IMG/VR virus record: IMGVR_UViG_2721755646_000010
Length of the DNA stretch: 64,000 nucleotides
Direction: 5' to 3' (one strand)
Source of the DNA: a virus
Lineage: Duplodnaviria > Heunggongvirae > Uroviricota > Caudoviricetes
Of this stretch, positions 3,001 to 6,000 are shown piece by piece. A program made the position numbers. Within the stretch, counting starts at the first letter, position 1; every line of letters begins with the position of its first letter.

Positions 3001-6000
3001 TGTTTGCGCATTGATGCCGAGATACGCTTCCAGTCTTCGCGGTCGTTGTCGATAACTTCATTTTTTGCCCAGCGATGGATGCTGCCGTCAATGTTTCCGG
3101 CATCCACATCACCAGGCCAGAGAGCGTAGGCCAGTTCGTCATCCAGTGTTTTCCATGTCTGCTTATATTCGCGACGAATGACTGCAGTGACAGGGGGGAT
3201 TTTTTCTGCTGAGTTTTCAGTGTGCTGTCGGTGGACTCTGGCGCGGGCGAGATCAACAACAGACGTGTATTTTCCGGTTTCCTTGCGTTCACCTTCGCGA
3301 CGTTTTTTCCAGATGCGCATTTCTGCCTGAATTTCGGGCCATTTGGCACCAGGCTTACATTTATGCTTAACCCACCCGATGGCATGCAGCTTAAGCTCCG
3401 GATACATGGCGTTAACTTCTGGCATTTTCATCAACGCTTCAACGATATGTCCGTCGAATGTTGCCATGTCTTCCTGCAACAATTCCTGCGCGCTAATCAC
3501 CATATCAACGGTGATGTTTTCACATGTGTCGAACTTAACCATGACAGCGTTCTGTACTTCAGGGGCCAGCTTGTCAAAAGCGACGTTCATCGGATCGGAT
3601 TCAGTCTCAACCGGGACAAAGGAAGCAGCCCCCTCATCCCAGCGGTTTTCCTGCATATATTCAGCATCCCAGGAATCGAGGGCAGGGCGGGGTATACCGG
3701 GTTTATCCTCGCAAACAAGAAATTTATAAGCGCAGTCCTGAGCAGCCGGATAATGCTCCAGGAATTGCCAGTGAAATTTTGCGCGGGCGCGACGTTCATC
3801 ACCGGCTTCAATGGCAGTGGCTACAGCGACTGCACCTTCTTCCTTTATTGCCTGTTCGTCCGGAATGGCGGCGCAAATAAAGACTTTACTCATTTTGTTT
3901 TACCTCATTACAGATTTAAGGGTGAACAAATCCCTGCCATTGCTGGCATATAAGAATGAAATCGGATGTTTATTACGGAACTGTTTTAAAGACCTGCCGG
4001 GATTTCGTTATTATCCTGGTGAATAACTTTATCGACAGGGTAACAGTTACCGGGAATTTTCTGTTCGGTTGCTGCAGTCACACACTCCTGCATTGTCCTG
4101 TGAACACTGACTGCAATATCAACTGGCTCTCCGGAAACAAGAAAAACTGTCAGAACAAGTGCAAATGCTGTATTCATTGCCAGCATCCTTTTTGTATCGG
4201 ACGTAAACGGGCCAGCATTGAAAGAATGCATATTTTATTTAATAACTCCCGTTCGTGTTTTCTCTTGTTAATGGCATCTTCAGTAAATACAGGGTTACTG
4301 ATAGTGACACCAATTTCAAAACAACCTTCAGACGTATTAACGTTTGGTAATAACGTTTCCATTATCGCGTCCTCAACAATGAATTTTGTGATGCGGTGCC
4401 TGGTGCCTCCAGGTGACGTTAACCAGTTAACAATTAACGCCGGATACAGAGAATCCACCCATAACACTGTTTTTAGCTTTAACTGTTCCGCGTGCGCTTA
4501 GCCGCATTCACTGCATCACAAAATTCACTTTAAAAAGGGCGGACATCAGTTCATGGGCAAACAGATGCCGCCAAACGTCACCAGAAAATTGATAACAGAG
4601 GGCGTTGCAGCGGGGTTGTCACTTAAGCGTATGGTCAACCTGACAACCCGGTGTCCTCAACGGGGAAGGAATAACCCCGCCATACTTACCGCTGCGCCAT
4701 TTCGCGGAGTGCCACAACCGGAAGCGCACGGTCGACGAAAATTTAACGACAGGCTATCTATGAACCAGCAACCTCGCCGTGCGCTTTCGCGTTATGCTCT
4801 GACTTTTCAGAGAAATATCCTTTCAGTAAACTGTCAGTGCCGGATGTTCACCCGTGTCCGGCGCACGCACTCCACTTCACCCGTGGAGAACTCCTTAATT
4901 ACCAACCCTCAGGAGGGTGAATGTTAAAATCAACTCTTATTGCTAAATGCCTTTATCAAAATCGCATGGTAAGCAGCATTTCAATAGGCGAGTCTGCAGT
5001 TAAAAGTATTTTCGAAGAGTACTTTCCCGGGCATGATTTTAATAAATGGAATACCAAATTACCGCCAGCAGTTTCAACGCGTATTCTGAAAGCAACCGAA
5101 AGAGCAAGTACAATTCGCGTTAACTATTTCATTAAAGATTTGTGGGATCTTTGATATCCACAGAGCCTAAAGTATGTGCATATGGATGTGCTATTATGCG
5201 CCCTCGCAGATTTGCATCATTTTCTAAATTCACTGAACGAAACAGGGCATCAACAAGGCTCTGTACAATGCAAAGGCAATCGAAGACTGTCGCCGTTTCT
5301 GTTTTGATTGATGAAAGAACATGGCCATTCACGCAAACAGAAATTACCCGTTTATTAACATCGCTTTCCTGCTTTTGATTATCAGAACCATATAGCCCAG
5401 AAAAAGCATTGCGCACATTACGAACCATATTATCGATGGTTTCTTTTTCTGCGGTACTAAGGTCAAGAGTAGCCAGTTGTGAACGAACTATATTCGATGC
5501 CATTTCCTGTAATGGCGTTGGTAAATCTTTAAATTCCATTATTAGCCTCGTTGGTTAGCTATTAACGTGGGTATGTAATCATTCTGGCAATGCTTAATGC
5601 CGCTGCTTTTTCCAGATTGGTGATATCCTGCTCCAGAGCGGACAGATTTTCAGCCTGCTTAGCCCTGGCTTCATTGGCCCATTTCAGGTCCTGCACCGCC
5701 TTAATTTTCTGGTGCATCCACTCATAAAGTTCATCATCGGTATAGTCTGGCGCGATGATGACGGGGTCTCGTTTCTGCATGTCGGCTCCTTGTGGTTAGC
5801 GTTGCCTGCTTTTTAACCACGTCAGGCGAGGTGGTATCCTCTGAGGGGTCTGTTACTCGAGAGGAAATTGGTTATGAATACAATCAAGTTTTCTTGCCCA
5901 GAATGTGGTGGCTAAGTCTTTGACACATCCTTTAAGCCGCAGGGCTCTGACAGTTTCGCGGGAGCCATCTGCAAAAATTGTGGTCACCTTGTAACTGAAG

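Follow-up and report, generated by a model that had tools for sequence, protein, structure and literature searches.

Among the typical accessory loci of prophages are genes with a promoter of their own which lie antisense to the lytic operons (PMC7067206). For the locus described here, the closest counterparts are the sieB genes of lambda, P22 and Rac, rightward genes of the early-left region which face the first early gene or genes of the leftward operon and touch or overlap these at the 3′ end. In lambda, sieB directly adjoins N; in P22, 21 bp separate its end from gene 24; and in Rac, it shares 4 bp with ydaF. The prophage expresses SieB, which excludes superinfecting phages, and a means of self-escape is part of the locus: P22 SieB aborts superinfecting phages, and P22 itself escapes via Esc and the sas antisense RNA. 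Here, we analyze a pair of small convergent genes, orf135 (leftward) and orf77 (rightward), located between positions 4921 and 5539 of a 64,000 nucleotide stretch of viral DNA (Caudoviricetes; IMG/VR record IMGVR_UViG_2721755646_000010), which in its full length is called the window. It holds two Qin/Rac-type lambdoid prophages and corresponds to an E. coli O157:H7-like genome. We favor, tentatively and with somewhat less than even confidence, the reading that the two genes form a cassette occupying the sieB slot in the early-left operon of a lambdoid prophage of the Qin/DicB type. The orf77 product (Y) would be an exclusion-type factor made in the lysogen, and the C-terminal part of orf135, X, would represent an opposing early gene.

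A similar layout is found in e14, where ymfI and ymfJ are convergent, overlap by 63 bp and lie immediately left of the repressor. RNA-seq lists ymfI-ymfJ and sieB-ydaF as convergent excludons (PMC12288877). After DNA damage, ymfJ mRNA (log2 fold change 4–4.8) and YmfJ protein rise late, together with the early-right gene ymfM, and ymfI is little changed (PMC11002266). The pair described here resembles an excludon in that its genes are convergent, have overlapping 3′ ends, and one of them is under a strong inducible promoter. What is seen here is a coding overlap of 23 bp; overlapping transcripts have been reported for the K-12 pairs ymfI-ymfJ and sieB-ydaF only.

X and Y Form a Conserved Convergent Pair

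orf135 (5132..5539, − strand; 135 aa, MEFKDLPTPLQEMA...) matches phrog_1363 (E 5e-47) and consists of an N-module (residues 1–52; 5384..5539, − strand) with two predicted helices, followed by the 75-aa X domain (residues ~62–135; 5132..5356, − strand), which is modeled by AlphaFold2 (AF2) as a β-hairpin, two helices and a tail (predicted local distance difference test, pLDDT, 71). orf77 (4921..5154, + strand; 77 aa; phrog_10348) lies on the strand opposite to the early-left operon and is preceded by a strong Shine-Dalgarno sequence, AGGAGG (4911..4916, + strand), 4 nt before the ATG in the context 'caggagggtgaa-ATG'. An earlier note on this DNA had described a rightward open reading frame (ORF) of 77 aa converging on the 135-aa gene with a 3′ overlap of 23 bp, and exactly this overlap is present (5132..5154); it has an identical length in loci of Serratia, Dickeya and Klebsiella.

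Free-standing proteins of Serratia, Dickeya and Klebsiella (77–79 aa) align over their full length to residues ~62–135 of orf135 with 34–40% identity, and a profile search for X returned 83 members from at least 10 genera, mostly free-standing and 75–80 aa long. Free-standing X is encoded in prophages of Serratia, Klebsiella, Dickeya and Citrobacter as the gene that directly follows OL/pL, and its N-terminal fusions comprise a ClpX-type C4 zinc finger (PF06689; Citrobacter), other extensions and, in E. coli, the N-module. By these comparisons, orf135 proves to be a fusion of N-module and X, encoded in an operon under the control of a DicA-type repressor. Between cI and X, the loci of Klebsiella, Serratia and Dickeya contain operator-like repeats which also occur in the cI-cro intergenic region, and the predicted pL promoters overlap these repeats in both loci scanned (Klebsiella, Serratia). 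Thus, X is the first early-left gene in these loci. As far as the arrangement of predicted sites shows, X is under the control of the immunity repressor in these sister phages. The median ratio of nonsynonymous to synonymous substitution rates (dN/dS) of X is 0.33, which indicates purifying selection. In Citrobacter freundii (L176 3001–3420; proteins P0184 and P0213–P0218), a PF06689-X fusion faces a diverged Y homologue with an overlap of 51 bp.

Homologues of Y with 77 aa, 55–72% identity and conserved start and stop were found in at least nine genera, including Klebsiella, Raoultella, Serratia, Dickeya, Yersinia, Xenorhabdus, Morganella and Salmonella. According to an exhaustive HMMER search, the family comprises 157 clusters at 50% identity, nearly all of them single-domain proteins of 75–80 aa in which Trp43 is invariant; it has no Pfam model and is covered by phrog_10348 only. 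The median dN/dS of 0.20 again indicates purifying selection. The earlier note had named missing expression and conservation of both ORFs as a point at which its proposal would fall, and both ORFs turned out to be conserved.

The two families occur together. Y converges on X in 84 of 89 X loci, with 3′ overlaps of 23, 26, 33, 51 or 53 bp, and the remaining X loci contain other convergent pairs or fusions; X is present in all seven prophage loci reached from Y. The convergent partner is not accidental. The flanks vary between loci: repressors differ in length and type, and RdgC, YfdP or other genes follow downstream. Judged by gene order across these loci, the X-Y pair clearly stays together against a mosaic background. 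A complementarity of charge, the rightward product being basic and the leftward one acidic in the window, was considered and dropped, as it fails across 57 X-Y pairs, in which Y is mostly acidic.

The Pair Is a Discrete Cassette of the dicB-Type Operon

The backbone of this locus is that of the Qin dicB operon (ydfA-ydfB-ydfC-dicF-dicB), with 95% DNA identity; the dicB/DicF operon is known to be repressed by DicA. Based on annotated relatives and K-12, the leftward gene order is DicA-type repressor, orf99, ydfC, orf135, a long leader, DicF, dicB and an exonuclease. DicA-type repressor, ydfC, DicF and dicB form one leftward unit, as in Qin/DicB-type early-left operons, and orf135 is the third gene of the repressor-controlled operon. 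K-12 Qin is empty between ydfC and the dicF leader, whereas O157-type prophages hold a 634-bp cassette at this site (4908..5541). In a blastn comparison with NC_000913, window 5780–5542 corresponds to positions 2824–3062 and window 4907–4101 to positions 3063–3871 of the K-12 locus L082, collinear and with 95% identity. Exactly 4908–5541 is missing in K-12, where ydfC directly joins the dicF leader. Because of this exact indel, the orf135/orf77 pair can be delimited as a discrete cassette of 634 bp, and it carries the start codons and ribosome-binding sites of both genes.

A short imperfect direct repeat (tggaatttaaag / tggtaattaagg) bounds the cassette at window 5520–5541 and 4893–4907, and the empty K-12 site (L082 3050–3075) has a single copy of it, tagtaattaagg; these copies are compatible with gain or loss of the cassette by short-repeat recombination.

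Many O157:H7 chromosomes are 100% identical to the query region, PPompW prophages are 98.9% identical to window 4400–6200, and 645 of 5426 complete E. coli genomes (~12%, including O157:H7) match at least 80% of the query. RefSeq O157:H7 genomes annotate both genes as coding sequences ('hypothetical protein'), as do the records of the phages PPompW and Evi.

One N-Module Is Followed by Many C-Terminal Domains

The earlier note had pointed to a resemblance between the first ~50 residues of the 135-aa protein and a 212-aa protein of prophage 2, with unrelated C-terminal domains. Both observations hold: BLASTP of orf135 against the protein 51946–52596 gave 27/50 identities (54%) over residues 1–50 with an E-value of 2e-17 (single comparison), so that the similarity is significant rather than due to chance, and no significant similarity past residue 50. 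The sister gene in prophage 2 (orf212; 51946..52584, − strand; phrog_2151) combines the N-module with an unrelated C-domain of 160 aa. Its start is most likely MEFKDL at 52584, giving 212 aa; an in-frame ATG at 52596 would extend it to 216 aa. This gene, too, has a convergent partner, absent from the earlier note: orf69 (51736..51945, + strand; phrog_4274), 69 aa long when read from the second Met (alternative start at 51724), abuts it. Also new relative to that note are the identity of the dicB/DicF operon and the recognition of X as a separate, widespread domain.

The N-module is covered by PHROGs 1363, 6937, 2151, 9419 and 33007 (residues 1–55 to 1–72), and the AF2 model places its helices, with low confidence, at residues 8–23 and 32–47. 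A database search with orf135 returned 224 homologous proteins, exclusively from E. coli or Salmonella. Clustering of the C-termini and alignments distinguished at least seven unrelated C-terminal types behind the ~52-aa module, so the shared N-terminus with exchanged C-domains, first noticed in two proteins, recurs on a larger scale. The proteins are 135, 201 (the 135-aa type with a different tail of 66 aa), 212/208, 124/126/109, 133/137, 129, 122 and 94 aa long. Two sequence subtypes of the N-module occur on one C-domain, and recombination must, therefore, have taken place inside the N-module as well. No similarity of the N-module to YdaG, YdfB, YdaF or YdfA was found.

In all of 80 IMG/VR loci, the N-module gene ends right before a conserved block which contains the dicF leader, DicF and the start of dicB (4258..4867 in the window; 91.7% identical to 51067–51676 and also present in K-12). 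The distance from stop codon to block is ~270–310 bp where a small convergent ORF is present, or 25 bp; loci of the latter kind look like deletion derivatives. Every C-terminal type is paired with its own small convergent partner. These partners are mutually unrelated, except for those of 91 and 92 aa. The start context 'caggagggtgaa-ATG' is common to most of them, the prophage 2-type and YmfI-like-type partners having other contexts. We infer that whole cassettes, each consisting of C-domain and partner, were swapped by homologous recombination between the N-module segment and the leader block, the block at 4258..4867 probably forming the left boundary of the exchange. The N-module and the conserved block, together with the upstream element described below, would act as homologous flanks, and exchange between them would explain why the N-terminus is the same and the C-terminus swapped. 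Domain exchange within an early-left gene is known from Erf of P22-like phages, where likewise one domain of a single gene is kept and the other replaced by horizontal exchange (PMC8022706). The present case differs in that one short N-module is combined with at least seven C-termini and a convergent partner gene moves with each swap. The e14 genes are related to these sister cassettes: YmfI is 56% identical to the partner in the 122-aa cassette, and YmfJ matches, with its two halves, the C-domains of the N-module proteins of 133 aa and 122 aa. However, YmfI and YmfJ are families other than X and Y, and YmfJ has no N-module.

Further genes were seen in sister loci. In L017 (4454–4900) and five similar loci of the 124-aa type, the slot protein has 148 aa and two hydrophobic helices and shows a weak SLATT-like match (PADLOC RTasSLATT, E 0.002); SLATT proteins are a type of membrane effector known from abortive-infection systems. 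A Qin-type prophage with the 201-aa variant contains a PaaA2/ParE toxin-antitoxin pair between the repressor and a DUF1391 gene (L175 1694–2172).

Searches of orf135, orf77, orf212, orf69 and six sister proteins in Pfam, PHROGs, NCBIfam and PADLOC returned just PHROGs without a function, except for a YmfI match of one partner. No family of PADLOC-DB 2.0 matched orf135, orf77, orf212, orf69 or the 201- and 124-aa variants. Sequence and profile searches of PDB found nothing for X, Y, the N-module, orf212 or orf69. Remote homology and structure prediction, recommended by the earlier note for both C-terminal domains, gave a divided result: X was linked to its free-standing homologues, but no fold match was obtained for its predicted structure, and no PDB match for orf212.

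A Common Element Marks the sieB Slot

orf77 is directed against pL, converges on the 3′ end of the early-left gene(s) and lies left of the immunity repressor, which is the position of sieB-type genes. Comparison of gene order and upstream sequence assigns the X-Y pair clearly to the sieB slot of lambda, P22 and Rac. In nearly every locus, a conserved element of ~45 nt, tGCCTGtcTTTTcaCCACaTCAGGCtcGGTGGTATCtTGG, is found ~40 nt ahead of the start of Y. It contains a −35-like (TTCACC) and a −10-like hexamer (TATCTT) as well as two interleaved inverted repeats (GCCTG/CAGGC and CCAC/GTGG) with an A/T-rich loop. The repeats keep pairing by compensatory changes, GCCTG/CAGGC becoming GCCGG/CCGGC or GCCCGG/CCGGGC. 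Paired cells make up 89.9% of the alignment, which includes 8 double changes; 0 of 500 shuffles reach that level, for a sample with few independent lineages. The canonical form (tGCCTGtcTTTTcaCCACaTCAGGCtcGGTGG...) precedes the ATG of 83 Y orthologues, 31–33 nt from the end of the profile match or, in a subgroup (n = 21), 64 nt from it.

A profile of the element detected 155 copies in 139 loci, and behind 117 of the 155 a same-strand ORF starts with ATG, mostly 31–33 nt on. They represent at least 11 mutually unrelated families, among them Y, a 147-aa family, proteins of the YmfI-like and Zn-ribbon kinds, a membrane protein that may be SLATT-like (E 0.002), and SieB. The SieB case (locus L116; PF14163, 71 bits, E 8e-20), located in the same slot, serves as a positive control for the Pfam scan. 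The same element lies ahead of sieB in lambda (NC_001416 34394–34428, E 9e-11), in P22 (BK000583 ~29650–29686, directly upstream of the sieB promoter and transcription start annotated in the curated record) and in Rac (L181 3064–3105), and ahead of ymfI in e14 (L084 423–459, E 5e-11).

In the window, a canonical copy is located at 5803..5840 (+ strand). The copy belonging to orf77 (4839..4875, + strand; 46 nt before the ATG) is degenerate. It was identified by regular expression and alignment (GCCGG...CCGGC and CGTG...CACG) and is not detected by the nhmmer profile of the element. Compensatory changes preserve both of its inverted repeats, and it folds well as + strand RNA (z −2.8). A stable nested RNA was rejected as an explanation for the element, since folding of the canonical copies is unremarkable on both strands (z −1.3 to +0.5). 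Counts of G-U versus A-C pairs did not identify its transcribed strand, no Rfam family matches it, and the consensus promoter scan does not flag it (score 8 of 12). By our own reasoning, the two stems in a leftward RNA would combine into an H-type pseudoknot whose loops measure 3, 2 and 7 nt (GAAAAGA). The element may be a promoter, an operator, an RNA element or lambda tL1.

Other genes were observed behind the element. A Zn-ribbon ORF of 66 codons (5874–6074, + strand; MNTIKFSCPECGG...) starts 33 nt past the canonical copy in the window and is wholly antisense to orf99 (5853–6152, − strand). It is intact in L005, L102 and L106, and the window copy has TAA at codon 14 (Glu in the intact copies), the rest being in frame; in the relatives, both strands appear to be coding, which would make this a fully overlapping antisense gene pair. 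Some phages have tandem units of early gene, facing anti-pL gene and element (L140 2882–4013; L116 2427–4016; L128; L111). In L116, SieB, which converges on the repressor gene, belongs to one unit, and the following unit combines an X fusion with Y. A partner family of 147–207 aa ('...YTGWQIG.GDQ.L') is located behind the element in L106 (4472–5095), L122 (3904–4431), L172 (3901–4353) and L176 (4089–4532); it faces an early gene of 116–133 aa, sometimes fused to X, and has no Pfam or PADLOC match.

Neighboring Features and Other Elements of the Window

Upstream of orf135 in the operon lies the ydfC homologue (5562..5780, − strand; annotated ydfC), 95% identical to K-12 ydfC at the DNA level. 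The DicA-type immunity repressor (annotated dicA; layout compared with K-12) occupies 6416..6823 (− strand), and the gap between it and orf99 (6153–6415) contains the early-left promoter region. A variant of the DicF small RNA (sRNA) is encoded at 4537..4586 (− strand; Rfam RF00039, 43.5 bits, E 1e-7). Its score is below the Rfam gathering threshold of 48, so a standard scan overlooks this copy; DicF of prophage 2 (51346–51397) reaches 75 bits. Further Rfam matches are one sok antitoxin RNA per prophage (11703–11852 and 58607–58781, + strand) and matches to STnc100 (16821–17029, + strand), AgvB (17031–17090, − strand) and P22-type sar RNA (37971–38037, − strand). Four tRNAs lie at 16479, 16635, 63075 and 63251.

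Discussion

In the reading favored here, Y would be transcribed in the lysogen from its own promoter region, like sieB and other 'moron' genes, and X would be made only upon induction or infection. Derepressed early-left transcription would read X and then run antisense through all of Y, shutting Y off. X and Y would thus be expressed in opposition and in a mutually exclusive, excludon-like manner. More cautiously than this opposed expression, we suggest that Y is a prophage accessory factor, most plausibly directed against superinfecting phages, and that X may neutralize Y during the phage's own lytic growth, in analogy to Esc and sas of P22 sieB. The earlier note had likened the pair to exclusion or abortive-infection modules near repressor genes, and this likeness is partly supported: the slot is shared with sieB, the same element is present, and SieB itself is found behind it in a related phage, so that an exclusion-type role is reasonable from context. 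By the same analogy, a phage-against-phage defence role for the pair is plausible. No relative of either protein among such modules was found in PADLOC, Pfam or NCBIfam.

Several observations weigh against this reading. orf135 and orf77 have no similarity to known defence, abortive-infection, exclusion or toxin-antitoxin proteins in the three databases just named. orf77 differs from SieB in being a small, soluble protein of 77 aa without a transmembrane segment (maximal 19-residue Kyte-Doolittle value 0.59, versus 2.84 for SieB of L116) and without SieB homology. In Pfam, neither orf77 nor orf69 had a hit to any family at E<0.1, PF14163 included, and no in-frame Esc-like product is apparent in orf77. 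The element ahead of orf77 is degenerate and lacks a good −10 hexamer, and a promoter scan finds nothing there, which leaves transcription of orf77 in O157 putative. X can occur without Y: in a common 201-aa variant of E. coli, X carries another tail and faces another partner, of 63 aa, with an overlap of 23 bp. One distant homologue of Y was found by itself in a chromosomal, non-phage setting, and physical overlap by itself could hold X and Y together. Finally, the leftward gene facing sieB differs between lambda (N), P22 (gene 24) and Rac (ydaF), whereas X is co-conserved with Y. We know of no functional link between sieB and N, gene 24 or ydaF. As the partners of sieB vary, and lambda N/sieB is itself such a case, convergence alone is no proof of coupling at the protein level.

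The main rival is a considerable possibility, if a minority one: X and Y would be functionally independent neighbors, orf77 being an ordinary moron in the sieB slot and orf135 an unrelated early protein, and the overlap alone would preserve the pair. The shared N-module would then be a recombination footprint in a conserved 5′ segment, and the overlapping 3′ ends would leave no neutral recombination point. This would agree with the varying sieB partners, with X lacking Y in the 201-aa variant and Y lacking X outside phages, with the 124-aa type, which is found with and without a partner, and with the Erf precedent for early-left domain exchange (PMC8022706). However, the co-occurrence in 84 of 89 loci holds down to 35–60% protein identity despite differing repressors and downstream genes. 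The overlap measures just 23–53 bp, so recombination elsewhere in ~440 bp could part the genes. Moreover, where genes of mosaic lambdoid genomes are transferred together, this usually indicates that they depend on each other functionally (PMC9836094).

Three other explanations are less probable. An accessory lysis-lysogeny switch, in which X would promote lytic growth, for instance via the repressor or a host factor, and Y in the lysogen would restrain leaky X, with convergent transcription making both states mutually exclusive, is improbable. The position of X at that of N, directly after OL/pL, and the convergent, overlapping genes would suit such a switch, and the Citrobacter fusion with a ClpX-type zinc finger hints at a link to proteolysis or an adaptor. 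Nevertheless, the pair is third in the operon in the E. coli Qin-type prophages and dispensable (absent from K-12 Qin, deleted in many loci), and the many unrelated genes in the slot, sieB included, fit accessory cargo better than core regulation. An addiction module with one toxic product and one antidote is very improbable: two small, tightly linked and co-conserved prophage genes would fit, and ParE/PaaA2 and sok are present in the same regions, but type II systems need a co-directional autoregulated operon where this pair is convergent. There is also no DNA-binding antitoxin fold and no family match in Pfam, NCBIfam or PADLOC, the lone trace being one sister partner versus RelB-like proteins (0.014), far below the cut-off. 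Hardly any credit is left for the view that takes orf77 for a spurious antisense ORF and the N-terminal resemblance for chance. Nothing except the small size speaks for it, and it is already refuted by the 77-aa orthologues in at least nine genera with conserved start and stop, a dN/dS of 0.20 and the strong Shine-Dalgarno sequence on the one hand, and by the E-value of 2e-17 for the N-module and its recurrence in five PHROGs on the other. A polymorphic toxin with immunity gene was rejected: a constant N-terminus with variable C-termini is seen, but no secretion or toxin domain, and the partner is convergent and overlapping where a co-directional immunity gene directly downstream would be expected.

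The exclusion-type cassette is the preferred reading. Going beyond it, X-Y and the sister pairs (212 aa/69 aa, YmfJ-like/YmfI-like, 133/92 aa, 109/91 aa and 201/63 aa) might make up an unrecognized class of prophage cassettes, in which a lysogen effector and an early antidote lie tail-to-tail and are moved as units by two conserved handles; we regard this generalization as rather unlikely at present. The handles, serving transfer between lambdoid phages of many Enterobacterales, would be the coding segment of the N-module and the ~45-nt sieB-type element; the latter might act as a regulatory site or fold as an RNA pseudoknot instead of being a simple promoter.

An accessory gene directed against pL at the sieB position, excludon-like in arrangement, is of a known kind. 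In the literature searched, and to our knowledge, neither the families X and Y nor the obligate pairing of their genes tail-to-tail are described, nor are the combination of one N-module with many C-domains and the use of a sieB-type element by at least 11 gene families. The 52-aa module with its at least seven C-domains is a clean natural case of in-frame domain shuffling between short conserved flanks. DicF and DicB follow closely downstream of the cassette within one operon, and the cassette and its antisense transcription could, therefore, alter the yield of DicF from each of the several copies in enterohemorrhagic E. coli. Roles of this sRNA in cell division, metabolism and virulence have been reported. 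Should genes of the orf77 type prove to act in exclusion or defence, the sieB slot, recognizable from the 45-nt element and the orientation against pL, would become a predictable hotspot for small anti-phage genes and their self-immunity partners.

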